Positions 39-62,431 of a DNA stretch of 64,000 nt are shown here, in pieces. Made by a program: the position numbers and the translations under genes. The stretch comes from Acidimicrobiia bacterium (GTDB taxonomy: Bacteria; Actinomycetota; Acidimicrobiia; Spongiisociales; UBA5794): positions 13,958-77,957 of the forward strand of contig JASJAX010000008.1 in assembly GCA_030066755.1 (NCBI GenBank). The letters are read 5' to 3'. Positions within the stretch are counted from its first letter, which is position 1; every line of letters begins with the position of its first letter. A model generated the notes under the pieces. That model saw only the letters and a list, made by a program, of their open reading frames with translations. It was not told the DNA's origin and did not search any database.

Positions 39-461
39 ATGACCGATGCACCGAAGCCGCACGTCGTCCAGCTGCGACTGGTCGTAGAGGCGGAGGACTT
101 CGATGCCGCGGTGGCGTTCTATCGCGACACTCTCGGCCTGGAACCCGAGTTCGACATCGAGAGCGACGGGGGTGCGCACGTCGTCGCTCTCCAGGTCGGC
201 CGTGCCACGCTCGAGCTCGTCAACCCGCCACAGCGCCGCCTCATCGACGACCTCGAGGTCGGTCGTGACGCGAGCGGCAAGTTCCGGGTCGCGTTCGAGG
301 TCACGGACACACGGTCCGCTACTGACCTCGCAGTGGCGGGGGGTGCCGAACTCATTGCCGCCCCGACCGAGACACCGTGGCGTTCCCTCAACTCGCGCCT
401 CGAAGCCCCCGCCGGCCTGCAAATCACCCTCTTCGAGGAGCTGGAGGAGAGTAGCGAGTAG
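39..461 (+). CDS. VOC/glyoxalase-family protein; the start is uncertain (GTG at 6 or ATG at 39) and the gene may begin upstream of the window
   Basis: Size and composition fit a glyoxalase-like fold (..VVQLRLVVEAEDFDAAVAFYRDTLGLE..). The 3' end, encoding EELEESSE, runs into the heptamer repeat. Confidence 0.5.
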   Translation: MTDAPKPHVVQLRLVVEAEDFDAAVAFYRDTLGLEPEFDIESDGGAHVVALQVGRATLELVNPPQRRLIDDLEVGRDASGKFRVAFEVTDTRSATDLAVAGGAELIAAPTETPWRSLNSRLEAPAGLQITLFEELEESSE

Positions 462-526
462 CGAGTAGCGAGTAGCGAGTACTCAGACTGGCGACTGGCG
501 ACTGGCGACTGGCAACTGGCGACTGG
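449..526. repeat. Tandem heptamer array: GAGTAGC x4 followed by GACTGGC x6
   Basis: Direct reading. The stop codon of the upstream CDS lies inside the array. Confidence 0.9.
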
Positions 527-657
527 CGCCGAAGGCGCCCCAAAGGCCCTTTGTCCCTGGTACGACGCGTAGGTTTTACAGAAGATCAAATCTGCGCTGT
601 GCGTGGGTACACGCCGCATCGGAGCATCGGAAGGGATCCCGTCACAAGGAGTGGCTG

Positions 658-1755
658 ATGGCTATTGAGGTACGGAAGGTCGTTCTCGAGAGTGTGAGTG
701 ACGCATCGGGCTTGGCCGAGCTCATCGACAAGGGTGTGTTCGAGGCGGACGGCGTCATCGCCGTCGTCGGCAAGACCGAGGGCAACGGCGGCGTCAACGA
801 CTTCACCCGGATCCTCGCCGATCAGGCATTCCGCAAGGTGTTGATGGAGCGGGGGACCCGTCCCGAAGAGGAAGTTGCCGAGATCCCGATGGTGTGGTCC
901 GGGGGCACCGACGGCATCCTGTGTCCCCATGCGACCGTGTTTGCGCGTGTCGACGACAAGGAACCGGCCTCGGATGAACCGCGGCTGGCCGTGGGCTACG
1001 CCATGAGCGACACGATCCTCCCGGAGGACATCGGCCGGCCCGCCATGGTGGAGAAGGTAGCCGAGGGCGTGCGGCGAGCCATGGGCGAAGCCGGCATCAC
1101 GGATCCGGCCGACGTGCATTACGTCCAGACGAAGACTCCGTTGCTCGTCATGGAGACGATCAACGATGCGAAGGCACGAGGCCACACCGTGTTCACCGAG
1201 GATCCGCTGGAGTCGATGAACGTGTCCAACGGCACGTCGGCACTCGGCATTGCCGTTGCGCTCGGTGAGATCGATATGCCGTCGGCCGAGCAGATCGGCC
1301 ATGACCTCAGCCTGTTCTCGTCGGTGGCCTCGTGCTCGTCCGGCGTCGAACTCGATCAAGCCCAGACCGTCGTCGTGGGGAATGCGCCCGGCGCCGGTGG
1401 CCGGTATCGCATCGGCCACGACGTCATGAACGATGCGCTCGACTTCGAAGGGGTGTACCGAGCGATCCGCAACGCAGGCCTCGACCTGCCCGACCGTGCT
1501 CGGCCCGAGGACCTCGATGGACGTCTCGTCAATGTCTTCGCCAAGTGTGAGGCCGACCCCACCTCCCGCCTGCGAGGGCGGCGCCAAGTGTCCCTCGACG
1601 ACTCCGACGTGCACCACCACCGCCACATCAAGGGTGCAGTCGGCGGTGTGATCGCCGCTGCCATCAACGATGCGGCAGTGTTCGTCTCGGTGGCGGCACT
1701 CCATCAAGGTCCATCGGGTGGCGGACCCGTCGCCGCGATCGTCGATCTCGGCTGA
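658..1755 (+). CDS. Ring-opening amidohydrolase of the barbiturase / cyanuric acid amidohydrolase (AtzD/TrtA) family; candidate barbiturase
   Basis: 365 aa. The N-terminal motif [16 protein letters not shown] matches the AtzD/barbiturase signature (KTEGNGCVNDYTR in AtzD). An AAGGAG RBS lies upstream. The size is typical of this three-repeat fold. Confidence 0.75.
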
Positions 1756-2601
1756 TTGGTGACCGCACCGGCGGTTGAGCAGGCGGCACCGCCGGCACTC
1801 GTTGAGGTGCCGGCGGTGGCCAGCCTCGCCGTGAGAGCCCTGGTCGCCGGACGACGCAGACGGTTCGGGGTGCTTGGAGCCTCGACCCACGCTGTGTGGC
1901 TCGACGGAGGTCACGACGTGCTCGTGCTTTCGACCCGCGATGCGACCCGGCTGCCCAACAGCGTGGAGCTGCCCTTCGATGCAGACCGAGCGTTGATGGC
2001 GAGTATTCCGCCCGGCGACACGATGCAGGTCGGCGGCGGTTTTGTCACCGGTGGACCGCTGACCGTGCGCGTCGTTCGTTGGTGGGATCCGCGGCTCGTT
2101 CTGGCGCCCGTCGCGCCGGGTGTGCTCGAGCGTCGTCTCAACGGCCTACCGGGCGAGGTCCCCGGGATCGACTCAGAGCCGCTGGCGTGTGCGATCCGGG
2201 CCCGGTGCCCCACCGGCGTACTCGACGCAGCAACCGAGCTGCTCGGTCTCGGGGACGGGTTGACCCCGGAGGCCGACGACATGGTGGCCGGCACACTGGC
2301 CGGAACTCGGTGTCTCGGTCACGCACTCGGTATGCGACGAAGCGTGGCTGCGCTCGACGCCGTTGCTCCGGTGCTGATGGCGACCGCAATGGCTCGTACG
2401 ACGACGTTCTCGGCCGCCTTGCTTCGGCACGCGCTGCGGGGCGAGGTTGCGGCTCCCGCTGCAGCTTTCCTCCGCGCCTTGGCCGGCCGTGGAGACGTTG
2501 TCGCTGCCCACACGCAATTGAGAAAGGTTGGACACTCGTCCGGTCGGGCGCTGGCGGCGGGCATCGTTCTCGCCGGGCGCACGCTGATCGCGACCGCATG
2601 A
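1756..2601 (+). CDS. DUF2877-like protein, the YlbF-type component of the FdrA/YlbE/YlbF trio
   Basis: About 280 aa and Ala/Gly-rich. It abuts the upstream stop and sits directly before the FdrA and DUF1116 homologs. The assignment rests on size plus context and is weaker on sequence. Confidence 0.4.
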   Translation: MVTAPAVEQAAPPALVEVPAVASLAVRALVAGRRRRFGVLGASTHAVWLDGGHDVLVLSTRDATRLPNSVELPFDADRALMASIPPGDTMQVGGGFVTGGPLTVRVVRWWDPRLVLAPVAPGVLERRLNGLPGEVPGIDSEPLACAIRARCPTGVLDAATELLGLGDGLTPEADDMVAGTLAGTRCLGHALGMRRSVAALDAVAPVLMATAMARTTTFSAALLRHALRGEVAAPAAAFLRALAGRGDVVAAHTQLRKVGHSSGRALAAGIVLAGRTLIATA

Positions 2602-2617
2602 TTGAAGGAGATGCCAG

Positions 2618-5457: not shown

Positions 5458-5536
5458 GCGTCATCATGCCAGCGAAGGCTCCACCAGGCTTCACTGATTG
5501 CGTTTGCATCCTCAATCGGGTTGGGAGGAGATTTCC

Positions 5537-6421: not shown

Positions 6422-6431
6422 GAGGACGGCT

Positions 6432-9280: not shown

Positions 9281-9305
9281 GTCAAACCGAAGGAGAAGGA
9301 GCTGC

Positions 9306-12940: not shown

Positions 12941-13933
12941 CTAGCGGGCGACGTTTCCGGCTCGCCACGGTTCGTCGAGTTCGACAACCGTGGCGCCGGA
13001 GGGAGCGTTCTCGAGTAACTCCAATGCGGACGAGATGACCCGGCGTTGGCGATCCCGATCGCCGGATGCCCCCAAGGGTCGTCCCATCGGATGTTGCGTG
13101 ATCAGCGTGCGGGGGAGACGCATGACCTCGGCGACGTGCTTGAACGCACGCACGAACACCGACACCGTCGGAATCCCAGCACTCTCGAAGGCTCTGGCGA
13201 CGTGTCCGACCGACACGTGGCACACCGGTCAGACGGGAACGAGCAACAGGACATCGATCGCATCGGACTGCAGCTGTTCGACCCAGCCCGGGATTGCCTG
13301 CTTCCGGAGCCGGCCCTGTGAGGTCGCACCGGTGAAGGAGTACATCGGCGAGCTGAGTTCACCGATGACCCCGTCGGCTTCGAGCGATTGCAGGATGCTG
13401 AGCGGGAATGCCACCTCTCGATCGTGCGACACACTGCGGACGTCATACCCACCATGGCGAACGCGTAGGTCGGTTGGTTCGAGGTCGGTTGGGATCGCAG
13501 AGAATTCCGGGGTGTCGCGTAGGAACTCACCGATTCGCTCCTCCGCTTCAGCCTGCGTCATGTTCTCCACACCGAACGGCTTCGGGTCGTCGCCCTCGGC
13601 GAAATGGCCCGAGCTCGTGAGCACTCCGACACGGCTCTCCGCCACGGGCTTCGCAAGCGGAGTGAACGGGGCATCGTCATACGCGTGGTTGCGACCGCTG
13701 CCCTCGTACCCACGGCGCTGCCACTCGAACACGAGCTGATGAATCGGGCTGATGTCGCCGTCGTCGAGACTGTGACCTACTTGCCACAACAGCTGGCGGA
13801 AGAACTCCCCGGCATCGTCGTCGGTGAGGGACTTCAGGAACTTGAAGGTGAGGTCGGACCGGGAGCCGTAGCTGAAGGAGTTCTTGAACTCTTCCAAGGT
13901 CTCGGCTGCGGGCGTGGCGTTCTCGTCGTTCAT
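12941..13933 (-). CDS. GrdB-like (glycine/sarcosine/betaine/proline reductase selenoprotein B family) selenoprotein with in-frame TGA (Sec) at 13229-13231
   Basis: Two track ORFs (13229..13933 and 12941..13225) are in the same frame and separated only by TGA. The read-through sequence ..DAIDVLLLVPV-U-PVCHVSVGHVARAFESAGIPTV.. matches the GrdB/PrdB U-x-x-C context. A hairpin sits 11 nt downstream. Confidence 0.65.
13200..13218 (-). ncRNA. SECIS-like stem-loop (ACGUGUC-GGUCG-GACACGU) 11 nt 3' of the in-frame UGA
   Basis: Direct reading on the mRNA strand. A 7-bp stem with a G/U-containing loop at the spacing expected for a bacterial SECIS. Confidence 0.5.
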
Positions 13934-15366: not shown

Positions 15367-16850
15367 CCGCGCCGGGTTGGCTCGAGCGGTCCACACACCC
15401 GCCTCGCGGGAGACGCCTCATGTACGTCATCGGGGCCGTCATCACTGCGTCGGCGCTCGGCACGGTGCCTGCCATCCTGACCGGAGTCGTCTACCGGGAA
15501 TGGGACGACGTCCTCGGCCTTCTTCTCGCCGCCGTTTGTATGGCAGCGATCGGGGTGTCTGCGTGGCGAGGCTTCGGTCGTTCCGGACGGATGAGCACGC
15601 GCGAAGGTCTTGCGGTCGTCGGGTTGTCGTGGTTCGCCATGGTCGTGGTGGGCACCCTTCCGTATTTCTTCACCCAGTCGATCGGCGGCGTGACCAACAC
15701 GTTCTTTGAGACCGCCGCAGGATTCACGACGACCGGCGCATCCATCCTGCCGGATCCCGGCGTGCTCTCCCACGCCATGCTGATCTGGCGAGCAACGACG
15801 CAATGGGTCGGCGGCATGGGAATCATCGTGTTGTTCGTCGCAGTGCTGCCCTTGCTCGGTGTCGGTGGTGTGGAGCTGGCGCGTGCCGAATCGCCGGGCC
15901 CGGAACCGGACCGCCTCACGCCGCGATTCCAGGACACTGCGAAGCGACTGTGGCTGATCTACGTCGGGCTCACCGCAGGGTTGTTCGTGTTGCTGGCGCT
16001 CGGCGACATGTCGATGTTCGAGGCGATCGCGCATTCGCTGACCACCATCTCGACCGGCGGGTTCAGCACCGAGCCGGGTTCAATCGGAGCGTTCAGTGCG
16101 TACTCCCAGTGGATGATCGCGCTCTTCATCTTTGTGTCGGCGACCTCGTTTGCACTGCACTATCGGGCGAAATGGCGTCCGGCGCGGTACGTGGAGAACG
16201 CCGAGTTCCGCCTCTACGCAGGCACGATCCTCACTGCGTCGATCCTCATCGCGCTCGGCCTGGCGTCCGACCTCGCAATCGGCGACACGATCCGTGACGC
16301 GGTCTTCAGCGCCCTGACGTTGGTCACGGGAACGGGATTCGCGACGAGCGACTTCGGGCAGTGGACCGCAGGACTGCAGATCCTCGCTGTCTCCCTGATG
16401 TTCCTCGGGGGGATGGCCGGATCGACCGCCGGGGCGGTGAAGACCTATCGCATGGGTGTGCTCTACAAGTCGTCGGCGGCGAGTCTGAAGAAGCTGGCGT
16501 ATCCATCGGCCGTGATCGTGCCCCGATTCGGTGGGCGGCCGATTCCCGACTCGATCGTGCGCAACATCCAGCTCTTCTTCCTGTTCTACATGATCACCTT
16601 CGTCACCGGGACGGTGCTGTTGGCGCTCATCGATGCCGCTGCCGGCAACCAGGCAAGTCTCGTGACCACCACCACGGCGGTGGTGTCGGCGATCGGCAAC
16701 ATCGGGCCGGGACTTGCGGAGGTCGGGCCGGGCGGGACCTATCTCGTGATCTCCGACGCAGGGAAGTGGCTCTTGAGCTTCCTGATGATCGTCGGCCGCC
16801 TGGAGATCTTCCCAGTCGTACTCCTCTTCACCCGGTTCTTGTGGAAATAG
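15363..16850 (+). CDS. trkH: TrkH-family potassium transporter
   Basis: Multi-span membrane protein overlapping the trkA stop. TrkH-like repeats are present. The start may be ATG at 15420. Confidence 0.8.
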   Translation: MTAPGWLERSTHPPRGRRLMYVIGAVITASALGTVPAILTGVVYREWDDVLGLLLAAVCMAAIGVSAWRGFGRSGRMSTREGLAVVGLSWFAMVVVGTLPYFFTQSIGGVTNTFFETAAGFTTTGASILPDPGVLSHAMLIWRATTQWVGGMGIIVLFVAVLPLLGVGGVELARAESPGPEPDRLTPRFQDTAKRLWLIYVGLTAGLFVLLALGDMSMFEAIAHSLTTISTGGFSTEPGSIGAFSAYSQWMIALFIFVSATSFALHYRAKWRPARYVENAEFRLYAGTILTASILIALGLASDLAIGDTIRDAVFSALTLVTGTGFATSDFGQWTAGLQILAVSLMFLGGMAGSTAGAVKTYRMGVLYKSSAASLKKLAYPSAVIVPRFGGRPIPDSIVRNIQLFFLFYMITFVTGTVLLALIDAAAGNQASLVTTTTAVVSAIGNIGPGLAEVGPGGTYLVISDAGKWLLSFLMIVGRLEIFPVVLLFTRFLWK

Positions 16851-16913
16851 TCTCAGGTCTCAGGTCTCAGGTCACAAGCCTGACGTGGGACGTGGGACTT
16901 GGGACTTGTGACC
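16851..16913. repeat. Heptamer array GTCTCAG x3 then GTCACAA, switching to GTGGGAC / TTGGGAC / TTGTGAC (inverted orientation)
   Basis: It fills the whole gap between the convergent trkH and ltaE genes. The two halves are imperfect reverse complements. Confidence 0.9.
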
Positions 16914-16918
16914 CGGCC

Positions 16919-17953
16919 CTAGCCGAGCACCGTCGCCGCGGCCTTGATTGCTGCATCAATGTCATCCGTGGTGACGTGGAGGTTCGTGACGGCCCGGATG
17001 GTGTCGTGGGTGAGGGCCAGGGCGGCCACGCCGTTGTCGAGCCACGCAGCTTCGAACTTCGCGGCCGACATCGCCGTGACGCGGAAGTAGACCATGTTCG
17101 TGGCGACCGTGTCGAGATCGACTTCGACACCGGGTTGCTCGGCAAGGCCGACGGCGAGGCGGCGAGCGTTCGCGTGGTCGTCGGCGAGGCGCTCTCGATG
17201 GTGCTCGACTGCGTAGAGAGCTCCGGCCGCCATCATGCCGGCCTGCCGAAATCCGCCACCGAACATCTGCTTGAAACGTCGCGCCCGGTCGACGATGGCT
17301 TTGCTTCCGGCAAGGGCTGAGCCCATCGGTGCGCCCAGCCCTTTCGAGAAGCAGACGCTGACCGTGTCGAACCCTGCGGAGTACTCGGCCTCGGAGACCC
17401 CGGTCGCTGCCGTGGCGTTCCAGAGTCGAGCTCCATCGAGGTGCGTTGCCAGCCCGAGTCCCCGAGCCGTCTCGGTGACGTTGGTGAGTCGTGCGAGCGG
17501 CCAGACGGTCCCTCCGGCAGCGTTGTGGGTGTTCTCCGCCGCGACGAGCGTCACCGGCTGAAAGAGCGAGGCCGGCATCGATGCCGGGATCTCAGGTACT
17601 GCGGATCGAACCTGATCCGCGGTGAACGTGCCGGCCTCGCCGTCGAGCTGCTGGATGGTCAATCCCGAGATGGCGTTCGCCGCGCCGAGCTCGTGAAGGT
17701 CGATGTGGGCGTCCTTCGAAGCGAGGACGACATCGCCGGGTGACGTGTGGGCTCGCAGTGCCGTTTGATTCGCCATCGTTCCGGTCGGCGTGAACATGGC
17801 ATCGTCCTTGCCGAGGACCTCAGCAACCCGAGCCTCGAGCGCCAGCACCGTCGGGTCGTCGTGGTAGACGTCGTCCCCGACTTCAGCGTCGGCAATCACC
17901 CGCCGCATCGCGTCGGTAGGCCGGGTAACAGTGTCGGAACGGAGATCGATCAT
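16919..17953 (-). CDS. ltaE: Low-specificity L-threonine aldolase
   Basis: 344 aa. The N-terminus MIDLRSDTVTRPT.. and the PLP-fold motifs are typical of LtaE. Confidence 0.85.
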   Translation of the reverse strand: MIDLRSDTVTRPTDAMRRVIADAEVGDDVYHDDPTVLALEARVAEVLGKDDAMFTPTGTMANQTALRAHTSPGDVVLASKDAHIDLHELGAANAISGLTIQQLDGEAGTFTADQVRSAVPEIPASMPASLFQPVTLVAAENTHNAAGGTVWPLARLTNVTETARGLGLATHLDGARLWNATAATGVSEAEYSAGFDTVSVCFSKGLGAPMGSALAGSKAIVDRARRFKQMFGGGFRQAGMMAAGALYAVEHHRERLADDHANARRLAVGLAEQPGVEVDLDTVATNMVYFRVTAMSAAKFEAAWLDNGVAALALTHDTIRAVTNLHVTTDDIDAAIKAAATVLG

Positions 17954-17960
17954 GAGGAGA

Positions 17961-17995
17961 GTCTCAAGTCTCAGGTCTCAAGTCGCAAGTCGCGC
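17961..17995. repeat. Heptamer array (GTCTCAA, GTCTCAG, GTCTCAA, GTCGCAA, GTCGCGC)
   Basis: Direct reading in the divergent region upstream of ltaE and the four-helix-bundle gene. Confidence 0.85.
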
Positions 17996-18085
17996 CTGGA
18001 TCTGCGGTCTGTGTCCTCACGGTCCTGGTGGTCTGTGGTCGAGGGTCTTGTGAAGGGTGGTCGTGTGCGCTAATGGTCGACGTGA

Positions 18086-18445
18086 ATGCGCAACTTCCGG
18101 AACCTCAATGTGTGGCAACAGGCACGAACGTTGACACTCGAGGTCTTCGCCCTCTCAGAGCGTCTCCCGGACGTGGACCGCTACGGCTTGGCAGCCCAGT
18201 TACGGCGATCAGCAAACTCGATTGGTGCCAACATCGCCGAGGGGGCAGGCCGCCCGACGCGACGGGATTATGCACGGTTCCTCGCCCAGGCCATGGCGAG
18301 CAGCAATGAGCTAGAGCACCACCTCTCGATCGTTGATGGAGCAGGCTTGATCAACGGCGAGGATGTGGCGCCGTTGATCGATCGATGCGACCAAGTTCGG
18401 AGGAGGCTGGTCAATCTCCGCTCGAGGATCCTGGCCGAAACCTAG
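18086..18445 (+). CDS. Four-helix-bundle protein (the family often encoded in 23S rRNA intervening sequences)
   Basis: 119 aa. MRNFRNLNVWQQAR...IGANIAEGAGR...FLAQAMASSNELEHHL is characteristic of that family. Confidence 0.8.
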   Translation: MRNFRNLNVWQQARTLTLEVFALSERLPDVDRYGLAAQLRRSANSIGANIAEGAGRPTRRDYARFLAQAMASSNELEHHLSIVDGAGLINGEDVAPLIDRCDQVRRRLVNLRSRILAET

Positions 18446-18470
18446 GACCAAGCCGGTCGAGACCCTCGGC

Positions 18471-18519
18471 TTGGGACCTGGGACCTGGGACTTGTGACCT
18501 GGGACTTGGGACCTGGGAC
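18471..18519. repeat. Heptamer array YTGGGAC x7 (one TTGTGAC)
   Basis: Direct reading between the four-helix-bundle gene and the ABC exporter. Confidence 0.9.
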
Positions 18520-18547
18520 CTGCGCTGCCGAGTAGCCTCGCGCGGCT

Positions 18548-20362
18548 ATGTCCGTTCCGTCATCTACCGCCCCGAGCGGTCTTCGTGAGGCGCTGCGTGA
18601 GGGCTTTCGCCTGATCGGCACGTTCATCAGGAACGGGCCGGTGTCGTACGCACTGGCGGCCGGTGGTGCGGCGCTGTTTGCTGCGGCGATCGTTGCGGCG
18701 GCATTCGTGATCGGCGATGTCACCGATTCGCTGATCCTGCCGGTGCTCGATGAGGGTGTGTCGAGTGAGGGTCTGCTGTGGCCGGCCATCGCCGCCGTCG
18801 TCGGCGTTGCGACGTGGAAGGCTGCCGGGATCACGCTGCGCCGCACCGCGGCCGGATGGTTGCAGTTCCGGGCACAGACCGACGCACGGATCGGTCTCAT
18901 CGATCGGCTCCTCCGCACGGAGCTTCGGTGGTACCACCGTCAATCCGTCGGTGACCTGCTGTCGGTGACGGAAACCGACGCTCGGGAGGCGACCTTCATC
19001 CTCGCTCCGCTGCCGTATGCAACCGGAGCCACCCTTCTCCTGATCGGGACCGTGGTCATGATCTTCGTGCTCGATCCGATCATCGCCCTGGTCACGCTCG
19101 GGTCGCTCGGTTCGATCATTGCTGTCGACATTCGTGGGAGCTGGTCGTCGTTCGAGGCGTTCCAGGATGTGCAGCGGTTGCGCGGCAACGTCTCGCAGGT
19201 GGGTCACGAGAGCTTCGACGGAGCTCTCACCGTCAAGGCCCTCGGGCGCGAGGCGGTCGAGACGCGCAGGTTTGAAGCGGCGTCCGAGGAGCTCCGCGAC
19301 CGGATCATCGACGTGAACCGGGTGTTCTCCACGTATCGAGTCATCGTTGAGGCAATGCTGTCGGCCGTTGCCGTTCTCGTGCTGATCGTCGGCGCGTTCC
19401 GGACACGTGCCGGCGCGGTGACGCCCGGCGATCTGGTGACGGTTGCCTACTTGCTCACCTTGCTCTTCATCCCGATTCGCATCGTGGGCTTCGTTGTCTG
19501 GGACATGTCGCATGCCCTTGCCGGGTGGCGGCGGGTCCAGCGGATTCACGAGTCCGCTGAGTTGGTTGCCTACGGAGGGCTCGATCACCGTGGCGATCCG
19601 ACCGGAGCCGAGGTCGCCGGCGAGGCGGTGGCCTTCACCTACGGCGGCGATGAGGTCATCCTCGACGGGGTCGAGCTCATCATTCCACCCGGGCAGGTCG
19701 TCGCCGTGGTTGGGCCGACGGGAGCCGGCAAGACCACGTTGGTGACCCTGCTGGCTCGCCTGTGGGATCCAACCAGTGGACAGATCACCCTGGACGGGCG
19801 TGATCTCCGGGACTTCGCAAGGTCGGCGCTTCCCGGGGAGGTGGCCTTCGTCGCGCAGGACGCGTTCCTGTTCGACGATTCGGTAGCCGGCAACATCAGA
19901 TTCGGTACGGACGCCTCGCAAACGGACGTCGACCAGGCTGCGGCGCTGGCCGGCGCAACGAGTTTCATCGACGAACTCCCGGATGGCTACGGAACTCAAC
20001 TCGGAGAACGAGGCACGTCGTTGTCGGGCGGGCAACGACAGCGAGTTGCGCTGGCCCGGGCACTTGTCCGACGGCCGCGGTTGCTCATCATGGATGACGC
20101 CACGTCGGCCGTCGACCCGTCGGTGGAGACGCAGATCCTCAAGGGCCTGCGCGATGCTGAGTTGCCGTCGACCGTGGTCATCGTGGCGTATCGACGCTCG
20201 AGCATCATGCTCGCCGACGAGGTCATCTTCCTCGATGAGGGCCGCATCGTTGGCCACGGGACCCACGCCGAGTTGATGGCGACGACGCCGGGATATGCGC
20301 AGATCCTCGAGGCCTATGAGGTCGACGCCGTGCGACGCGCCGAAGAGAACTCGCAGCCATGA
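18548..20362 (+). CDS. ABC transporter permease/ATP-binding protein (exporter type)
   Basis: Six-TM N-terminal domain plus Walker A GPTGAGKTT, signature LSGGQRQR and Walker B LLIMDDATSAVD. Confidence 0.85.
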   Translation: MSVPSSTAPSGLREALREGFRLIGTFIRNGPVSYALAAGGAALFAAAIVAAAFVIGDVTDSLILPVLDEGVSSEGLLWPAIAAVVGVATWKAAGITLRRTAAGWLQFRAQTDARIGLIDRLLRTELRWYHRQSVGDLLSVTETDAREATFILAPLPYATGATLLLIGTVVMIFVLDPIIALVTLGSLGSIIAVDIRGSWSSFEAFQDVQRLRGNVSQVGHESFDGALTVKALGREAVETRRFEAASEELRDRIIDVNRVFSTYRVIVEAMLSAVAVLVLIVGAFRTRAGAVTPGDLVTVAYLLTLLFIPIRIVGFVVWDMSHALAGWRRVQRIHESAELVAYGGLDHRGDPTGAEVAGEAVAFTYGGDEVILDGVELIIPPGQVVAVVGPTGAGKTTLVTLLARLWDPTSGQITLDGRDLRDFARSALPGEVAFVAQDAFLFDDSVAGNIRFGTDASQTDVDQAAALAGATSFIDELPDGYGTQLGERGTSLSGGQRQRVALARALVRRPRLLIMDDATSAVDPSVETQILKGLRDAELPSTVVIVAYRRSSIMLADEVIFLDEGRIVGHGTHAELMATTPGYAQILEAYEVDAVRRAEENSQP

Positions 20363-25707: not shown

Positions 25708-26256
25708 TCAGGCCTCGGCCTCGGTCATCCAGCCTGCCGGATATGCAGTCACGAGTCCGTGCTCGTTGATCGTGAGGTCTGCTGAGTAGGCCCCGCTTCG
25801 GTAGCGATAGCGGCGCTCGGCGAGGCGCTCGTAGGTCTGCGTGACCTTCTCGATGTCGCGTTGGGGGAAGTCGATGCGTATCGCCGTGATCTGGGCAGAC
25901 TCCCCGACCTCGAGCGCCAGGCGTTTGATCGGCAACGTGTTCGTCCCGGGCGTGAAGCCGAGATCGACGTCGGTCGCCCCGTACATCTCGAGTACCGGGG
26001 TATCACCCGCCGACCAGGTGCCGGAGCCATCGGTCGTCAACGCGAGTGTCCGATCGTTTTCGCCACCGTGGACGTTGATGCCGACGGAGATGGGCTGCCA
26101 TGCATGGTCGGTGGCGATCGTGTAGCGGATCTCGTACGGAGCCGAGTCGTCGACGAGCAACACCGTGCCGGCCAGCCGATGCCCCGTCGCCGTGTCGTCG
26201 AGCGTGCAATGCTCGTAGCTCGTCCGGTCGATGCGTCGCCACAGGATTCGTGCCAT
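25708..26256 (-). CDS. Hypothetical protein (putative glycolipid-binding-domain family)
   Basis: 182 aa. Family assignment is tentative. Confidence 0.4.
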   Translation of the reverse strand: MARILWRRIDRTSYEHCTLDDTATGHRLAGTVLLVDDSAPYEIRYTIATDHAWQPISVGINVHGGENDRTLALTTDGSGTWSAGDTPVLEMYGATDVDLGFTPGTNTLPIKRLALEVGESAQITAIRIDFPQRDIEKVTQTYERLAERRYRYRSGAYSADLTINEHGLVTAYPAGWMTEAEA

Positions 26257-29771: not shown

Positions 29772-30968
29772 TCAGATCAGCGCTTCGATCTCACGGGCGA
29801 TCGACTCCCAGGCAGGGCCTGCGACGTCGATCAAGGAGAAGTGGTCCGCTCCGGTGAGTTCGTGGAACACGATGGCGTCGCCCGAGTCGGCGGCCCGGCC
29901 CACGTAGTCCTCGCTCAAGCGGATCGGCACCGACTGGTCACCATCGCCGTGAACGATGAGTTGCCGAACCCCCATGGGGAGGAGTGCCGCAGGGTTGGCG
30001 GAAGCGTACGTGTCGGGATCCTCGTCCGGACCACGGTGAAGGAAGTGTTCTACGGCGTCGTCCCCGATGCCGGCGGAGTATGCCGCAGCGAGGTCGGTCA
30101 CGGGGGCGAGTCCGACGGCTCCGCGTGGCATCACCTGCGGGATTGCTCCGGGAGCGTTTGGGCCGAGGCCGGTGCGTGCCGCCATCCAGAGGGCGAGATG
30201 GCCACCCGCCGAGTGACCAAGGGTGACGACTGCCCCGGTGTCGATGGGGAACGACGCAGCGAGATCCGACAGGAAGTCCACGGCCCGGGCGGCGTCTTCG
30301 AACGTCGCAGGCCAACCGCCGCCGGTGCCGGTGCGGCGGTACTCGATGTTCCAGGTCGCCCAGCCGCGACGTGTCAGATCGACGGCGATTCCGTCCATCA
30401 GGTCCCGCGTCCACACCTCCCGCCAGAACCCGCCGTGCACGATCACGACCAGTGGGAATGGGCCGTCGCCGTCGGGGAGCCGGAGATCGCCGACCTGTTG
30501 GTCCTCGGTGCCGTAGGCGAGCGTTTCGAAGGGCAGCGCCGCGCGCCACACGAGGTGGGCGAGCGCATCCTGATACCCGCGGAGTCCCCGTCCGAAGATC
30601 TGGTGAACGCAGGCCGGTGCCGTTACCGACTGGCGGCGCCAGTCCTCGCGGGCATGGATGTTGGAGATGTGCACTTCCACCGTCGGGAGGTCGATGGCCG
30701 TGATCGCATCGTGGATCGCATACGACGAGTGCGAGAGCGCTCCGGCGTTGACGATCACCCCGTCGACGTGACCCCGAGCCGAGTGGAGCCGATCGATGAT
30801 GGCACCCTCATGATTCGACTGAAAAGTCTCGACTCCGATATCGAGGTCGGCGCCCCACGCAACGACACGATCCTCGAGCTCGCCGAGCGTGGTCGTTCCG
30901 TAGATGGCGGGCTCACGGGTGCCGAGCAGGTTCAGATTCGGTCCGTTGATCATGAGGACGCGCTGCAT
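29772..30968 (-). CDS. aroQ: Fusion protein: N-terminal type II 3-dehydroquinate dehydratase (AroQ) plus C-terminal alpha/beta-hydrolase (esterase/formamidase-like; HGGFW and GHSAGG motifs)
   Basis: MQRVLMINGPNLNLLGTREPAIYG...HISNIHARE matches type II DHQase almost residue for residue. It continues without a stop into an HGG..GHSAGG..HGDGD esterase domain. The remaining upstream part of the track ORF is an antisense shadow. Confidence 0.7.
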   Translation of the reverse strand: MQRVLMINGPNLNLLGTREPAIYGTTTLGELEDRVVAWGADLDIGVETFQSNHEGAIIDRLHSARGHVDGVIVNAGALSHSSYAIHDAITAIDLPTVEVHISNIHAREDWRRQSVTAPACVHQIFGRGLRGYQDALAHLVWRAALPFETLAYGTEDQQVGDLRLPDGDGPFPLVVIVHGGFWREVWTRDLMDGIAVDLTRRGWATWNIEYRRTGTGGGWPATFEDAARAVDFLSDLAASFPIDTGAVVTLGHSAGGHLALWMAARTGLGPNAPGAIPQVMPRGAVGLAPVTDLAAAYSAGIGDDAVEHFLHRGPDEDPDTYASANPAALLPMGVRQLIVHGDGDQSVPIRLSEDYVGRAADSGDAIVFHELTGADHFSLIDVAGPAWESIAREIEALI

Positions 30969-31008
30969 GGTTCCACGGTAATGGGAGCGACGGTGATTGC
31001 GGTGTCGC

Positions 31009-31761
31009 TCAGCCGGCGGGGGAGAGGTGCTCGGCTTCGAGTGATCTGCCGAGAGCCAGCGTCGCCGAATCGAGCGAACCGCGTTCCAGCTGGGCCTCGG
31101 TGGCAAGCGTCTCGAGGACCGCATCCGCCGTTCGTTGCAGGGTGATGGACGGGTCCATGTCCTGGAGGGCTCCTGCGGTGGCTGGATCCCACTCGAGCTC
31201 CAGCGCGTCGTACACCGGGAGCAGGGCATCGCGGATGAGCCTGCCGTCGGAGACCACGATGACCCCGCCGATGTGTGCGGCGCTGCGGGCGAGACGCTGA
31301 CCGACGCCCATGACCTTGCGACCTCCGGCATGAATCGAGTACTCACCAGGGCAGTACTCGCCGGGGAGTTCACCGATGAACGCCGTAATGCCCAGACGCT
31401 CGAAGGAGCGTTGGAGAACGCTCGACAGCAGGCCGAAACGATCGTGGATGCCGCTCCGCGGGTCGTCGGTCGGGATCGACCATGAGAATGCGAGGGTGCC
31501 CTCGTGGAAGACCGCAGCTCGTCCCCCGGCGAGCCGCTCCACAGCGGCGAACCCCATGGATCGAGTTGCGGCAACCGCTGCGGGATACCCGGGGCTGATC
31601 ACGTCGCGCTTCCCGAACGCCATGACTCGTCCCGGGAGATGCAGCCGGAAGGTCTCGCCGAGTTCGCCTTCCGAGACACGCAGGAGCAGGGCGCGTGACA
31701 GTGCAGTGTCGAGACCGGGCGACAGTGGTTCGGAGTCCTGGACAACGGTGATCGTGCGCAT
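31009..31761 (-). CDS. Lipoate-protein ligase / octanoyltransferase family (BPL/LPL catalytic domain) protein
   Basis: BPL_LplA_LipB-like blocks (..AVFHEGTLAFS.., CPGEYSI, GRKVMGVGQR) are present. Confidence 0.6.
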   Translation of the reverse strand: MRTITVVQDSEPLSPGLDTALSRALLLRVSEGELGETFRLHLPGRVMAFGKRDVISPGYPAAVAATRSMGFAAVERLAGGRAAVFHEGTLAFSWSIPTDDPRSGIHDRFGLLSSVLQRSFERLGITAFIGELPGEYCPGEYSIHAGGRKVMGVGQRLARSAAHIGGVIVVSDGRLIRDALLPVYDALELEWDPATAGALQDMDPSITLQRTADAVLETLATEAQLERGSLDSATLALGRSLEAEHLSPAG

Positions 31762-37673: not shown

Positions 37674-37807
37674 GTCGAGTCTCAAGTCGCAAGTCTCAAG
37701 TCAGGCATCGGGCGGACCTGAGACCTGTGACCTGTGACCTGTGACCTGGGACCTGAGACCTGGGACCTGAGACCTGGGACGAAGAACGACCTGCGACCTG
37801 AGACTCA
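37674..37807. repeat. Heptamer arrays: GTCNCAA-type x4 (left) and GACCTGN x about 12 (right, inverted orientation)
   Basis: They fill the gap between convergent genes. The two arms are imperfect reverse complements. The right arm runs up to, and includes, the minus-strand stop codon. Confidence 0.9.
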
Positions 37808-44574: not shown

Positions 44575-44826
44575 CCGGCGAGGGTACAGGGAGCGTGTGA
44601 CGAAAACGGCGGCCGACGGTGGGGTCGATCACGTGTCGAAGGGCAAACCGTGGTTCCGACATTGATTCGAAACGCTGAACAGGCGTTTTGCAGAAACCCT
44701 CAACCACCACTCGAAGCTTGCGTGCAAGCGAATGACAAAATCGTCTTACTGTCGGTCGTGCGCGTAAGACGGGGCTCAGGCCTCGCAGGCGAGGCGTTTC
44801 AATGTCAGATGGGGCGGGAGACCTGG

Positions 44827-44933
44827 GTCCCAAGTCGCAAGTCGCAAGTCGCATGTCCCAAGTCCCAAGTCCCAAGTCCCAATGCGCCGTCTGCCGGACC
44901 CGAGACCTGAGACCTGAGACCTGAGACTTGAGA
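44827..44933. repeat. Heptamer arrays: GTCNCAA x8 (44827-44882) and GACCTGA x5 (44899-44933), in inverted orientation
   Basis: Direct reading in the lhr / LLM-oxidoreductase divergent region. Confidence 0.9.
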
Positions 44934-45010
44934 CCTCTGCCGACGTGAGACCTGTGCCGACGTGAGACCTCTGCCGACGTGAGACCTCTGCCGGCCGTAG
45001 GATCGGTGCC
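44930..45010. repeat. 17-nt tandem repeat GAGACCTCTGCCGACGT x about 4.5
   Basis: Direct reading, immediately upstream of the LLM oxidoreductase start. Confidence 0.85.
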
Positions 45011-51206: not shown

Positions 51207-51207
51207 T

Positions 51208-52644: not shown

Positions 52645-52660
52645 ACCGTCGGCAGTCACG

Positions 52661-55868: not shown

Positions 55869-55934
55869 AACCGGCTGATTGTCTCATGGCTGTCAAGTAG
55901 CGGGGACGCGTGACGACAAGACGCCGTCGCCGAG

Positions 55935-55976
55935 GTCTCAGGTCTCAGGTCTCAGGTCTCAGGTCTCAGGTCTCAA
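55935..55976. repeat. Heptamer array GTCTCAG x5 plus GTCTCAA
   Basis: Direct reading in the divergent region between the VWA gene and arfB. Confidence 0.9.
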
Positions 55977-56003
55977 GTACGTGTCACCGGCTACGTTGGC
56001 TTC

Positions 56004-56426: not shown

Positions 56427-56429
56427 ACG

Positions 56430-57209: not shown

Positions 57210-57210
57210 C

Positions 57211-57498: not shown

Positions 57499-57609
57499 GG
57501 CAAAACCTCGGATCGCTTTGCACTCCTGTCGGCAAAAACCCCTGGCAGGAAAGGACTCATCGGTGGGTGCGCGACGGGTTGGGGCGCCGCCGTCTCTACA
57601 CTCGAGTCG

Positions 57610-59618: not shown

Positions 59619-59682
59619 TCTGGCACATCTGACGCATTTGTAGGCTCCGTAGAACTTCCGAGACGCAACAACTGGAAGGCCC

Positions 59683-60537
59683 ATGGACCCGTTTCGCCAC
59701 TCCGCACTCGCTCGACTCATCGATGTGCGCTACGCCTCGAATCGATTCGTCGTCATGGCTGCCGTCCTCGGGGGAATGGTGGCGTTCGGCTATCGCTGGA
59801 TCTCCGACGGAGCCGATCCATTCCTTTGGGCCTTTCGCGTGGGTGCCGCCACGTTCCTCGGTTGGGCCATCGCCCGTGAGCTCGATCCAGACCACCCGGT
59901 GTCGGCCGGTGTCGCAGCGATCGTCGCTGCGGGCGCCGTTGCCTTCGGTGCCCCCGAGATCGGCGCCGTCGCCGGATTCCTGATCGCGTTCCGGATCGCC
60001 GCGCGCACCACCGGAATGAGCGCCCATCCATGGGAGCTGGCCCTCGTGGTCGGTTTCGCCGGCTACCTCGCCGCCGGGCCGGCTTCGTGGCCTGCAGCCA
60101 TTGCGCTCGTGGGCGCCTTGTGGATCGACGGGGGCCATGCCCACGTGCCGCACCCGCCGGCACGAATCGCTGCCATTGTCGCCGCGTTCGTGGTCATCGC
60201 CGTGGCCGTCTTCACCTTCCCAGCCGACGTCTCTGCCGACGGAGGGTGGCTTGCCTTGGCGCTACTTCTCGCCGGAGCGGTCCTGGCGGGTGTTGCCGCG
60301 GCTCGCCTCCGTACGCCCACATCGACGGGCGATCGAGACCGTCAACCACTGTCTCGTGGCCGGGTGGCTCAGGCTCGTGCCCTCGCCGGGATTGCTCTTG
60401 TCGTCGCAGCAGTCCTCATGCCGGCCGACCCCGCAGCGTACGGCCCCCTCCTCGCCGCAGTACTCGCCGTCGCCGCAGTGTCGTTCACAACGCGAACCGT
60501 GGTATCCGCTTCGGATCCGGCGCCGCACCTCAGCTAG
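59683..60537 (+). CDS. Hypothetical integral membrane protein
   Basis: Multiple hydrophobic helices; Ala/Gly-rich. Confidence 0.45.
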   Translation: MDPFRHSALARLIDVRYASNRFVVMAAVLGGMVAFGYRWISDGADPFLWAFRVGAATFLGWAIARELDPDHPVSAGVAAIVAAGAVAFGAPEIGAVAGFLIAFRIAARTTGMSAHPWELALVVGFAGYLAAGPASWPAAIALVGALWIDGGHAHVPHPPARIAAIVAAFVVIAVAVFTFPADVSADGGWLALALLLAGAVLAGVAAARLRTPTSTGDRDRQPLSRGRVAQARALAGIALVVAAVLMPADPAAYGPLLAAVLAVAAVSFTTRTVVSASDPAPHLS

Positions 60538-60559
60538 CGGTCTGGCTACTGGCGACTGA

Positions 60560-61393
60560 CTAGAACAACGCGTTCGCCAGCCGCCGCCGGTACGGCGCAG
60601 TCAACGGGTGTCCATCGCCGAGCACATCGAAGATGTCGAGCATCGCCTCACGGGCATCGTCCTTACGCTCACCCTTCGCCTCCACGACGGCAATCAGGTG
60701 ATCCAGTGCAGGCTCGTACTGGCCCTTTCCCGCAAGCGCGTTCGCCAGCGCGATGCGATCAGCATCGCTGCCGGATTCGGCGAGCTTGGCCTCGAGGTCG
60801 CCGATATCGCTCCCGCTCGTGGCAGCGAGTCGGGCCGCCGCCTGAAGGCGTTCGACCTCCGCAGTGGGTGCCAGCTTGCCGAGCACGATCAACGCTTCCT
60901 CGGTCTCGCCGCGGGTGATGAGAAGCGAAGCGAGACCGGTGCCGGCCTCGATGTGGTCGGGCTGCATCGTGAGCACGCCTCGGAACCGGTCTTCGGCCAT
61001 CGCGAGGTTGCCTTCGAGGACGGCGTCGCGGGCCTCGTCCACCATGTGATCGAGTTCTGACGGCAGGAGCTCGTCGAGCCACTGGCGGAAGGATTCCTCG
61101 GGGATAGCGCCCGTGAAATGCGACACCGGAGCCCCGTGTCGAAACCCAACGACCATCGGGATCCCTTGAACGCCAAACTGACCTGCGAGCTGCTGGTTGG
61201 CGTCGACGTCGACTTTGACGAGTTCGAACGCGCCGTCCATTTCGTCGGCAACTCGCTCGAGAATCGGTCCGAGGACTTTGCAGGGTCCACACCACTCGGC
61301 CCAGAAGTCGACGACCACCGGGACCTCTTGAGAACGCTGGAGGACCGCCTCTGGGAATTCTGCCGTGGAAACGTCGCGAACGTGTGTTGCCAT
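60560..61393 (-). CDS. Thioredoxin-domain plus TPR-repeat protein (YbbN/CnoX-like)
   Basis: WCGPCK active site followed by TPR-like repeats. Confidence 0.75.
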   Translation of the reverse strand: MATHVRDVSTAEFPEAVLQRSQEVPVVVDFWAEWCGPCKVLGPILERVADEMDGAFELVKVDVDANQQLAGQFGVQGIPMVVGFRHGAPVSHFTGAIPEESFRQWLDELLPSELDHMVDEARDAVLEGNLAMAEDRFRGVLTMQPDHIEAGTGLASLLITRGETEEALIVLGKLAPTAEVERLQAAARLAATSGSDIGDLEAKLAESGSDADRIALANALAGKGQYEPALDHLIAVVEAKGERKDDAREAMLDIFDVLGDGHPLTAPYRRRLANALF

Positions 61394-61445
61394 GGCCGGC
61401 AGGTTAGTGACGATACGGCACCAAAAAGCGCGCTGAGTGAGGCCG

Positions 61446-62384
61446 ATGAGCACTCCAGAATCACGGACCCCTGCTACCGTCGCACGTATGGAACATCGAC
61501 CCGACGCTCCCTTCGGCGACCTCCTCACCGCCGTACTCACACCCTTCGACGACAACGGTTCCGTCGACTACGCAACGTTCTGGAGATTGGTCAAGCACCT
61601 TGCCGAGAACGGATCAGATGGTCTCGTCATTGCCGGGACGACAGGCGAATCGCCCACACTGTCCCATGTCGAGAAGATCGCCCTGTTCAAGGCGGCAAAA
61701 GAGGCCGTTGGCGACCGCGTCAAGATCATCGCCGGGACGGGTACCTACAACACCAAAGTCTCGATCGAGCTCACCGAGCAGGCCGCTGAAGTCGGCTGCG
61801 ACGGGGTGATGGCCGTTACGCCCTATTACTCCAAGCCGCCGCAGGAGGGCATCTACCAACACTTCGTGGCGATCGCCGAGGCGACGGATCTCCCGGTCCT
61901 GCTCTACAACATCCCGGGTCGCACGGCCCGCCTGATCGACATCGAGACGCTCAGCCGGTTGGCAGAGCACCCGAAGATCCTCGCCGTGAAGGACGCCGTC
62001 GACGACCTCGAATGGACCGGGAAGGCCATCGCGGCGCTACCCGAGGGCTTTGCCGTCTACTCCGGATCGGACGGCATGACCAAGGGCATGCTCGATCTGG
62101 GCGGCGTCGGCGTGGTGTCGGTGGCGTCTCACCTCGCCGGCAACCACATCAAACGAATGGTGCAGGCCGCCAAGTCGGGCGACGACGACGAGGCCCAGCG
62201 ACTTCACGACGGGCTGTCCCCACTGTTCGATGCGCTGTTCCTCGAGCCCAACCCGATGCCGTTGAAGGCAGGGATGAACGCCCTCTGGGCGACCGTCGGT
62301 CAGCCGCGTTTGCCGTTGATCCCGGCCAGCGAGGAGACCGCAGCAAGCATCGAGCAAGCCATGGCAGCGGTCCAGGACCTGTGA
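61446..62384 (+). CDS. dapA: 4-hydroxy-tetrahydrodipicolinate synthase
   Basis: DapA motifs (GTTGES, catalytic lysine region ..KDA..). The start is ambiguous (GTG 61437, ATG 61446 or ATG 61488). Confidence 0.8.
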   Translation: MSTPESRTPATVARMEHRPDAPFGDLLTAVLTPFDDNGSVDYATFWRLVKHLAENGSDGLVIAGTTGESPTLSHVEKIALFKAAKEAVGDRVKIIAGTGTYNTKVSIELTEQAAEVGCDGVMAVTPYYSKPPQEGIYQHFVAIAEATDLPVLLYNIPGRTARLIDIETLSRLAEHPKILAVKDAVDDLEWTGKAIAALPEGFAVYSGSDGMTKGMLDLGGVGVVSVASHLAGNHIKRMVQAAKSGDDDEAQRLHDGLSPLFDALFLEPNPMPLKAGMNALWATVGQPRLPLIPASEETAASIEQAMAAVQDL

Positions 62385-62396
62385 CCCCTCTTCCGG

Positions 62397-62431
62397 CTCA
62401 CTCGCTACTCGCTCCTCGCTACTCGCCACTC
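62397..62431. repeat. Heptamer array GCTACTC-type x5 (reverse complement of GAGTAGC)
   Basis: Direct reading. It fills the dapA-rnj intergenic spacer. Confidence 0.85.

Follow-up and report, generated by a model that had tools for sequence, protein, structure and literature searches.

The 64,000-nt stretch analysed here (referred to as the window; contig JASJAX010000008.1 of the Acidimicrobiia bacterium assembly GCA_030066755.1) carries tandem arrays of 7-nt units at eight gene junctions. These repeats are a member of the known class of heptanucleotide simple-sequence arrays, which are the commonest long simple-sequence repeats (LSSRs) in many bacteria, especially in large high-GC genomes (Mrazek et al., 2007, as cited in PMC4679880 and PMC4692102). 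Two of the arrays stand in inverted orientation around a small gene of family PF05635, the 23S rRNA intervening-sequence protein (IVP). Comparison with homologues gives good support to the rule that PF05635 genes, those within rRNA intervening sequences (IVSs) included, normally have inverted heptamer arrays on their two sides. The window alone adds a dense new member of the repeat class in Acidimicrobiia, i.e., a new lineage and a new unit family. What is new is a regularity: inverted heptamer arrays enclose PF05635 genes in different phyla, in phage-like contigs and in a true rRNA IVS, and the two arms co-vary.

The period of 7 is specific. An autocorrelation scan of the window detected nine period-7 arrays and none with periods of 4, 5, 6, 8, 9, 10, 11 or 12. 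Tandem Repeats Finder (TRF), used together with our own scan, placed period-7 arrays of 3.4-9.4 copies and 86-100% matches at all eight sites listed in a preliminary description of this DNA, as did inspection of the raw sequence. Adjacent doublets of GTCNCAN units occur 20 times and those of NTGNGAC units 21 times, whereas 100 first-order Markov resamplings of the window (65.5% G+C) gave expectations of 0.17 and 0.12, respectively; taken together, this is 41 against about 0.3. According to a gene map based on third-codon-position G+C and Pfam assignments, every array lies in a gap between genes and overlaps at most the last codons, with three arrays touching stop codons (459-461, 16848-16850 and 37805-37807). 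The earlier picture of dispersed tandem heptamers in intergenic DNA is thus borne out. With at least three head-to-tail 7-nt units, a period-7 excess and dispersed non-coding loci, the arrays belong with the heptamer LSSRs and the heptanucleotide short tandemly repeated repetitive sequences (STRRs). An Rfam scan of the whole window found no family and no rRNA, and a tRNA scan of the window found no tRNA.

The arrays could in principle be assembly artefacts, since short-read assemblers break at them and three other contigs stop exactly at arrays, as multi-copy repeats break assemblies. The part of the window from 13.9 to 21 kb was nevertheless recovered in six independent assemblies (ENA, NCBI, Logan) with 99.7-99.98% identity, zero gaps and the same unit order, and orthologous arrays occur in a different species (L365; L numbers denote sequences other than the window). 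Therefore the arrays are not artefacts, an explanation that is refuted for sites 2-4 and has a negligible probability overall. Nor was copy-number variation seen at this shallow divergence: the variable-number behaviour that the preliminary description envisaged was not observed among the six near-identical assemblies (0 gaps at ≤0.3% divergence), which are consensus short-read assemblies that hide minority alleles. Both copy number and unit differ in the orthologous cassette L365 of the related species. The independent short-read contigs L005, L006 and L145 end or become chimeric at arrays (window 16835-16850, 17990 and 18520), and it is likely that heptamer arrays often cause contigs to break in metagenome-assembled genomes of array-rich lineages.

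Neighbouring units resemble each other within arrays: three GTCGCAA units are followed by four GTCCCAA units, CTGTGAC occurs three times in a row, and there are a period-14 super-unit and a fourfold 17-mer. Such stretches of like units, together with the super-units of 14 and 17 nt, suggest that the arrays grow and homogenise by 7-nt slippage. Two unit families had been proposed, GTCNCAR with its complement (family A) and GAGTAGC/GACTGGC with the complement of the former (family B). Units of both kinds are present, but GACTGGC is only one base away from TTGCGAC-type units, and a single array of an Acidobacteriota genome (L014) contains a mixture of the two. The families therefore overlap, with family B falling at least partly within family A.

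Sites 3 and 4, which the preliminary description listed as independent unidirectional arrays, are actually the two inverted arms around one small gene. The 5' arm (site 3, 17960-17995, plus strand) consists of five AGTCTCA/AGTCGCA units and the 3' arm (site 4, 18471-18522, minus strand) of 7.3 TGGGACC units. The enclosed open reading frame (ORF; 18086-18445, plus strand) encodes a 119-aa Avd-like four-helix-bundle protein that matches PF05635 (23S_rRNA_IVP; Pfam, 1.5e-30) and TIGR02436 (NCBIfam, 98 bits). Its best solved relative is Xanthomonas campestris XCC0516 (PDB 2GSC, E 8e-18, five chains), the structure of which is homologous to Avd of diversity-generating retroelements (review PMC10053308). 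When 17950-18535 was folded, the 5' and 3' arrays paired across the whole ORF in both the minimum-free-energy and the centroid structure, and the arm-versus-arm duplex energies were -54.1 (plus) and -44.5 (minus) kcal/mol. A PF05635 gene with flanking inverted repeats that pair across it is what defines an IVS-type cassette. This cassette lies between a threonine-aldolase and an ABC-transporter gene; as the window contains no rRNA, it does not interrupt a 23S rRNA helix.

A related species has an orthologous cassette (L365), with a protein that is 61% identical, in the same aldolase/ABC-transporter gap. Its arms are built from GTTNCAA and TTGNAAC units, whereas those in the window are built from GTCNCAA and TTGNGAC. 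In a relative that is closer in the flanking gene (L124:1-185, aldolase 82% identical) the site is empty: the gap measures 141 nt, lacks the four-helix-bundle gene and has just 1-2 degenerate heptamer units, at its edges. L124 and window 17945-18560 represent a presence/absence polymorphism of the cassette.

To see how general the arrangement is, homologues were picked by protein similarity alone (n = 34: 4 metagenome, 12 plasmid, 15 viral-contig and 3 further Acidimicrobiia-type genes) and compared with 425 random positions, for which the 95th percentiles of the upstream period-7 score and of flank complementarity were 5 and 10, respectively. The plasmid set comprised Gemmatirosa, Azospirillum and ten cyanobacteria. 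Among the metagenome and plasmid homologues, 13 of 16 exceeded the control percentile for the upstream period-7 score and 14 of 16 exceeded it for flank complementarity, the failures being L340 and L346 (period 8). All 15 viral-contig homologues had complementarities of 11-22, with inverted GGCTNNA-type heptamers as flanks. In the further look-ups, L367 (16) and L368 (14) passed; L365 scored only 8 because its gene start was mis-called, and is bracketed by inverted arrays when read by eye. In total, flank complementarity exceeded the control threshold in 30 of the 34 PF05635 genes, and the flanks concerned were mostly inverted heptamer arrays. The converse selection, of loci by their arrays, gave the same picture: every PF05635 gene found this way (L017, L027, L098, L240) was likewise bracketed.

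Bracketing was seen in Actinomycetota, Acidobacteriota, Bacteroidota, Cyanobacteriota, Gemmatimonadota, Pseudomonadota and phage-like contigs (the window cassette, L017, L027, L098, L240, L328, L333, L335-L348 and L350-L368), almost always by inverted arrays with a period of 7, sometimes 8. Plasmid matches to PF05635 (n = 39) are nearly all from cyanobacteria, the classic hosts of STRRs, Gemmatirosa and Azospirillum being among the few exceptions, and the cyanobacterial plasmid genes are flanked by heptamer arrays. On the 16-kb plasmid loci L341 and L343, the gene-flanking pair constitutes the sole period-7 arrays. The Azospirillum lipoferum 4B locus (L339; plasmid AZO_p2, 13798-15330) is situated within a 23S rRNA gene (Rfam LSU, 899 bits) and is a classical 23S rRNA IVS with an ORF, and its closing stem is formed by 4.5 CRGAKGA units against 4.5 TCYGTCN units (z -11.5). 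In X. campestris, GGGAATC array #15 is located between bccP (XCC0517) and XCC0516 and overlaps the XCC0516 start codon, so that this PF05635 homologue also carries a heptamer array; only about 6% of the X. campestris genes are array-associated in the same table (PMC4692102, supplementary file 2). A link between IVS proteins and heptamer repeats was not found in the searchable open-access literature.

The arms of a cassette fit each other better than those of other cassettes. In 14 related viral cassettes the complementarity of a locus's own arms averaged 16.1 as compared to 9.4 across loci, and the own partner was the best one in 8 of 14. Gene-less sites with the same unit family were present on the same contigs in L347, L348, L342 and the window. 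The cassettes often lie inside operons, as between trpG and trpD (L017), between nuoD and nuoH on the strand opposite to nuo (L328/L347), and between cas6 and cas4. This last junction, of type I-D CRISPR-Cas, was hit twice in different cyanobacteria (L337, L343). In L347, a gene-less array of the cassette's unit also lies between nuoK and nuoJ. The 3' arm of L368 (positions 1864-1895; Acidimicrobiia bacterium BMS9Abin07) reads TGGCTGA TGGCTGA TAACTGA TGGCTCA and thus contains the Beggiatoaceae/cyanobacterial heptamer TAACTGA. That arm units follow the protein phylogeny was considered and rejected, because homologues at 44-54% identity carry related and unrelated units alike.

Including the cassette, five array pairs in the window fold into hairpins of 24-40 bp with periodic mismatches. 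Site 1 (449-528) lies at the convergent junction of a glyoxalase-family gene (plus; Pfam) and an unknown gene (minus). Its first array (449-481, plus; 4.7 copies of GAGTAGC, 100% matches in TRF) overlaps the last codons and the TAG stop codon (459-461) of the glyoxalase gene, and is followed by 6.1 copies of GACTGGC (486-528, plus). The two arrays are direct at the DNA level, and in the plus-strand RNA GAGUAGC pairs with GACUGGC at five of the seven positions of each unit. The plus strand folds with -37.9 kcal/mol (z -3.4; duplex -33.6) and the minus strand with -25.8 kcal/mol, which is not significant (z -1.9; duplex -22.4). Site 2 (16850-16913) separates the convergent TrkH (plus) and threonine-aldolase (minus) genes. 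The left arm (16850-16877, plus; 3.4 GTCTCAG units and GTCACAA) begins at the last base of the TrkH stop codon and, together with the inverted right arm (16882-16913, minus; GACGTGG/GACTTGG), fills the gap as a hairpin (plus -40 kcal/mol, z -5.35; minus -25 kcal/mol; duplex -41.3 and -21.1, respectively).

Site 5 (37674-37804) occupies a third convergent junction, between flavin reductase (plus) and DUF4032 (minus). Downstream of the flavin-reductase gene, four AGTCTCA/AGTCGCA units form the left arm (37674-37705, plus). The right arm (37715-37804, minus) has 9.4 GACCTGN units, an 8-nt break and then GACCTGC GACCTGA GAC, and continues into the DUF4032/kinase-like gene's stop codon at 37805-37807 (fold z -2.0 on the plus and -3.2 on the minus strand; duplex -38.1 and -50.1). 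Hairpins at sites 2 and 5 had been predicted, and both do fold. The accompanying rule, by which arrays are inverted at convergent junctions and unidirectional elsewhere, is broken by the pair around the IVP gene and by site 6 (44827-44993), which lies between the divergent Lhr helicase (minus) and luciferase-like (plus) genes. Here three GTCGCAA and four GTCCCAA units (44827-44882, plus) face 5.7 inverted GACCTGA units (44897-44936, minus). The hairpin is strongest on the minus strand (-65.4 kcal/mol, z -6.3, as compared to -38.2 kcal/mol on the plus strand), and the duplex energies (-62.7 and -39.3) give the same strand picture. Four tandem 17-mers (GACGTGAGACCTCTGCC; 44925-44993, TRF score 124) that embed the heptamer overlap and extend the right arm directly upstream of the luciferase-like monooxygenase gene. 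On the other side, a non-coding stretch of 250 nt without an Rfam match (44575-44826) separates the Lhr start from the arrays and contains two short stem-loops, CGTCTTAC...GTAAGACG near 44742-44771 and GCCTCGC-AGG-CGAGGC near 44780-44796.

The duplex energies of arm against arm agree with the fold results throughout. The differences in stem stability between strands are due to G-U pairs. As GC skew stays positive throughout the window, replication bias does not explain why the favoured strand switches. The G-U wobble asymmetry is striking in the window and was considered as proof of selection at the RNA level, but the stronger strand is distributed 16:17 across 35 PF05635 cassettes (p 0.46), and this argument was abandoned.

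The preliminary description regarded the inverted arrays as bidirectional intrinsic terminators of convergent genes and the single arrays as 5'-leader elements. Stable hairpins indeed fill the TrkH/threonine-aldolase and flavin-reductase/DUF4032 gaps exactly and, like Rho-independent terminators, are G+C-rich and come right after stop codons of convergent genes. In Xanthomonas, the distance between an array and the ORF that precedes it is also usually much shorter (mean 28 nt) than that to the following ORF (160 nt; PMC4692102). What does not fit is the form of the hairpins. An intrinsic terminator is a short G+C-rich stem-loop followed by a U-tract; the stems in the window, with their periodic mismatches, are 3-5 times longer and have no U-tract. 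No hairpin with a T-run, i.e., no terminator-like site, was found at 16700-18700, nor is there a T-run after the hairpins in the sequences of the other paired sites. Mycobacterial RNA polymerase is reported to require a U-tract at intrinsic terminators, which further counts against this explanation. Moreover, an equally strong inverted pair occurs at the divergent junction (44827-44936), another encloses a gene, and arrays close to start codons occupy promoter positions of apparently leaderless genes. A general role as terminators is therefore quite improbable, even though the folding itself stands.

Formation of G-quadruplexes, as proposed for GGGAATC and GGGGAYT arrays, is very improbable as an explanation. 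The seven TGGGACC units of 18471-18522 and the minus strand of 44855-44882 would provide at least four GGG tracts with 4-nt loops, but G3 tracts are absent from (AGGTCTC)6 and its complement GAGACCT as well as from the GAGTAGC, GACTGGC, GCTACTC and CTGTGAC runs. Since most arrays lack such tracts, G-quadruplex formation cannot be a common property.

Arrays near start codons deserve separate consideration. Site 7 (55933-55975, plus) is an unpaired, perfect array of 6.1 AGGTCTC units between the divergent genes for an unnamed ORF (minus) and an arfB-like protein with an RF-1 domain (plus), and ends 29 nt before the arfB-like start. Site 8 (62396-62431, minus), also unpaired, has 4.6 GCTCACT/CGCTACT units, fills the gap between the co-directional dapA and RNase J genes and stops 5 nt short of the ATG of RNase J (62437). 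The end of site 3 that is proximal to the threonine-aldolase gene on the minus strand is 6 nt before the ATG. Such arrays had been placed in 5' leaders, which is doubtful because many genes appear to be leaderless, having TAnnnT at 6-7 nt from their start codons. Therefore 17960-17995 and 55933-55975 would be located on or just upstream of promoter positions and not in leaders. In the window, many first genes of operons show this TAnnnT motif and no Shine-Dalgarno sequence (starts at 13933(-), 14011, 25708-26256(-), 48806(-), 50670, 51756(-) and 56004, among others), and operon-internal genes have GGAGG. This suggests that leaderless mRNAs are frequent in this Acidimicrobiia genome.

These positions raise the possibility that the arrays act at the DNA level, either as parts of promoters or by binding a multimeric factor, which might be the pentameric four-helix-bundle protein. 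In front of the threonine-aldolase gene, the sequence TTGCGA-N17-GAGACT-N6-ATG derives entirely from site 3, which also supplies the -10-like GAGACT. As 3×7+2 equals 23 nt, an array in the YTGAGAC orientation puts TTGNGA 17 nt upstream of the -10-like element, which is the standard spacing. Relatives that lack the array have GAGACT, TAGACT or TACACT at an equal distance. Furthermore, heptamer arrays of Geobacter were proposed as sites of a global regulator (PMC2700814), and the XCC0516 crystal contains five chains (PMC10053308). On the other hand, a canonical promoter and terminator consensus scan of 16.7-18.7 kb found nothing at the arrays, most arrays are at 3' ends of genes or oppositely oriented, a row of direct binding sites does not require the conserved complementarity of the arms, and in the rRNA IVS example the context is RNA. 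We consider a general DNA-level role improbable.

The reading that we prefer, with a confidence that stays a little short of even, is that the heptamer family was amplified in this lineage as IVS-type stem elements. These would comprise one cassette with an ORF (17960-18522), ORF-less hairpins (449-528, 16850-16913, 37674-37804 and 44827-44936) and half-sites (55933-55975 and 62396-62431). The arrays would be transcribed together with the neighbouring genes, and the long stems would act as double-stranded RNA, in RNase III-type processing, insulation or 3'-end protection, and not as canonical terminators. Excision by RNase III is established for rRNA IVSs and is extended to the stems in the window by analogy only. 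By another analogy, with the repetitive extragenic palindromic (REP) doublets called REPINs and their associated transposases (RAYTs), the four-helix-bundle protein is the best candidate for a factor that recognises or propagates the arrays.

The distribution of the units outside the window bears on this reading and on its most serious rival. A search of representative genomes for four tandem GTCNCAR units gave more than 117 loci, spread over many phyla and over G+C contents of 38-73%. A single, horizontally spread GTCNCAR unit was entertained as an explanation and dropped, because scrambled control units are as frequent or more so in viral contigs. The DNA that surrounds the threonine-aldolase gene in relatives (388 kb; 55-82% identity) has only six period-7 arrays, with different units, and none with other periods; one of the six is in a contig of the same species, and no PF05635 gene occurs outside that contig. 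The organism of the window is about 10 times richer in arrays than its relatives.

The rival is that the arrays are functionless microsatellites, produced by a replication-slippage bias to 7-nt units (Mrazek et al., 2007, as cited in PMC4679880 and PMC4692102) and tolerated in intergenic DNA, with the inverted pairs and the PF05635 link as by-products. Slippage would expand both arms of already existing hairpins and the PF05635 gene would insert into such hairpins. This neutral view must be taken seriously, although we rate it as rather unlikely. It agrees with the period-7 specificity that holds even in array-poor relatives, with the formation of arrays by arbitrary control heptamers, with the unit differences between related genomes and with the single units already present at both edges of the empty site L124. 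Furthermore, no gene family except PF05635 recurs beside arrays: when all ORFs lying within 600 nt of arrays were compared with one another, the only other matches were between translated array sequences. What it does not readily explain is that the arms of the cassette stay complementary while their sequence changes, and that about 30 of 34 PF05635 genes have complementary flanks as compared to 5% of control positions. The absence of copy-number change in the six assemblies also speaks against free slippage, but is a weak test for the reasons given above.

The IVS-type reading can be extended to a more speculative one, which we regard as an unlikely but real possibility. Heptamer arrays and PF05635 genes, encoding pentameric, Avd-like four-helix bundles, might be the two halves of one widespread system that resembles REPIN-RAYT. 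The gene would always lie inside an inverted pair of the arrays of its own genome, and its product would recognise, maintain or spread the arrays, possibly via excised RNA and a reverse transcriptase partner, as Avd has in diversity-generating retroelements. The hundreds of gene-less arrays (STRRs, GGGAATC arrays, those in the window and ORF-less rRNA IVSs) would then be non-autonomous derivatives.

Several observations weigh against the IVS-type reading. In viral contigs, scrambled heptamers formed arrays at 88 and 19 loci as compared to 17 for GTCNCAR; since they do so as often, the GTCNCAR unit is not special. The gene is absent from most arrays, i.e., from four of the five pairs in the window and from about 114 of the 117 array-selected loci, so that a trans-acting or derivative relation has to be assumed. 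In array-rich genomes (L014, L049) arrays bracket other small genes as well. Units track the host and not the protein tree, and the unrelated units of homologues that are 44-46% identical argue against simple co-transfer of the gene plus its arms. The stem is not more stable on the sense strand (16 versus 17 cassettes, Wilcoxon), so RNA-level reading on the gene's own strand is not specifically supported; the 35 cassettes in this test were the set of 34 without L335, L346 and the duplicate L358/L364 contigs, supplemented with five array-selected ones. Finally, the arrays of a few PF05635 genes (L335, L340 and L346) depart from the rule in having a period of 8, a direct orientation or an upstream position only. 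Those with a period of 8 are found in Gemmatirosa (L335) and Oscillatoria nigro-viridis (L346), with GAGGGCAG-type and GGGAGAGT-type units and a direct orientation in L346; L340 has direct arrays.

If the two-halves proposal were true, it would account both for a repeat class that has lacked an explanation since 1990 and for a protein family whose function is unknown. Reports of heptamer arrays have recurred (STRRs in 1990, Mrazek in 2007, Geobacter in 2009, Xanthomonas/Nostoc and Beggiatoaceae in 2015) and the arrays are used for strain typing, while their origin and role are unexplained. The 23S-rRNA-IVS/four-helix-bundle family is equally common and, outside diversity-generating retroelements, equally unexplained. 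The two questions are hereby joined into one that is experimentally approachable, as a crystal structure of XCC0516 is available and Nostoc PCC 7120 can be manipulated genetically.

Two other regions of the window, unrelated to the repeats, were noted. A 600-aa ORF on the minus strand (29772-31574) contains a type II dehydroquinase domain followed by an esterase/BD-FAE domain, which is either a fusion or two genes joined by the choice of ORF. The segment 2618-12871, which is free of arrays, resembles a purine/ureide catabolism cluster and encodes a CoA-ligase-like protein, an AllG oxamate carbamoyltransferase subunit, a three-subunit molybdopterin enzyme of the xanthine-dehydrogenase type, a thiolase-like protein and a xanthine/uracil permease.

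The kind of repeat had been called unusual and not recognised in the preliminary description, but heptamer repeats, including inverted pairs, were already published (PMC4692102, PMC4679880, PMC2700814). Its statement that the arrays are not CRISPR, REP or highly iterated palindrome (HIP1) elements holds. CRISPRs have repeats of 23-55 nt with unique spacers, whereas the units in the window are 7 nt long and contiguous, without spacers. The cyanobacterial repeats STRR1, STRR2 and STRR3 have the units CCCCAGT, TTGGTCA and CAACAGT. Like the arrays in the window, the STRRs of Calothrix and Anabaena are iterated tandem 7-nt units in non-coding DNA (Mazel et al., 1990, as cited in PMC4692102), but their hosts are cyanobacteria and not a high-GC actinobacterium, and GTCNCAR, GACTGGC and GAGTAGC are not STRR1-3 units. 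The closest match is that of GTCCCAA with the rotated STRR1 unit GTCCCCA, with one mismatch.

Heptamers in Beggiatoaceae and Geobacter likewise form short arrays at many intergenic sites. A Beggiatoaceae genome has 169 TAACTGA sets, mostly just upstream of start codons without a ribosome-binding site (MacGregor, 2015; PMC4679880), and Geobacter metallireducens has four GGGACCG units at 49 loci and paired sites with five MTYCTGA units (PMC2700814). The position of arrays just upstream of start codons that lack a Shine-Dalgarno sequence, common in both, recurs in the window at 17960-17995 and 62396-62431. The Geobacter arrays include paired, looped arrangements and were proposed as binding sites of a regulator (PMC2700814). 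Those of Beggiatoaceae are almost all direct and on the 5' side of genes, whereas the arrays in the window are mostly inverted pairs at gene ends.

The REP and bacterial interspersed mosaic elements and REPIN-RAYT systems (PMC3116915) share with the window short, dispersed intergenic repeats that form inverted hairpin doublets at gene ends, a single associated gene that is flanked by inverted repeats, and a repeat family that is also present at many gene-less sites. They differ in that REPs are palindromes of 20-40 nt and not tandem 7-mers, and in that the associated gene encodes a Y1 transposase and not a four-helix bundle. A transposase-like domain was not found in the approximately 40 window ORFs scanned.

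Among the closest published counterparts are the GGGAATC arrays of Xanthomonas campestris and X. axonopodis and the GGGGA(C/T)T arrays of Nostoc PCC 7120, which are dispersed intergenic heptamers with inverted pairs, as in the window. X. campestris has 186 GGGAATC arrays, about 90% of them intergenic, which are transcribed and for which no function was found; arrays have 2-26 units, and there are 70-75 cases per genome of closely spaced inverted array pairs, 70 of them in X. campestris (Rehm et al., 2015; PMC4692102). The units are related, as GGGACCT/GGGACTT in the window resembles GGGAATC/GGGGACT, but the window has an Acidimicrobiia host and a different unit family, mostly without G3 tracts. 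Its array density, 12 per 64 kb, is about 5 times higher than that of Xanthomonas (186 per 5.1 Mb, about 1 per 27 kb). The link with PF05635 was not noted by Rehm et al. (PMC4692102). The 23S rRNA IVSs with a PF05635 ORF, of the Leptospira/Coxiella type, provide the counterpart to the cassette: a long inverted-repeat stem encloses an approximately 120-aa four-helix-bundle gene, as it does at 17960-18522. The cassette in the window differs from these rRNA IVSs in lying between protein-coding genes, and most copies in the window are without an ORF. In the rRNA IVS of L339, the stem itself consists of inverted heptamer arrays, just as in the window cassette.

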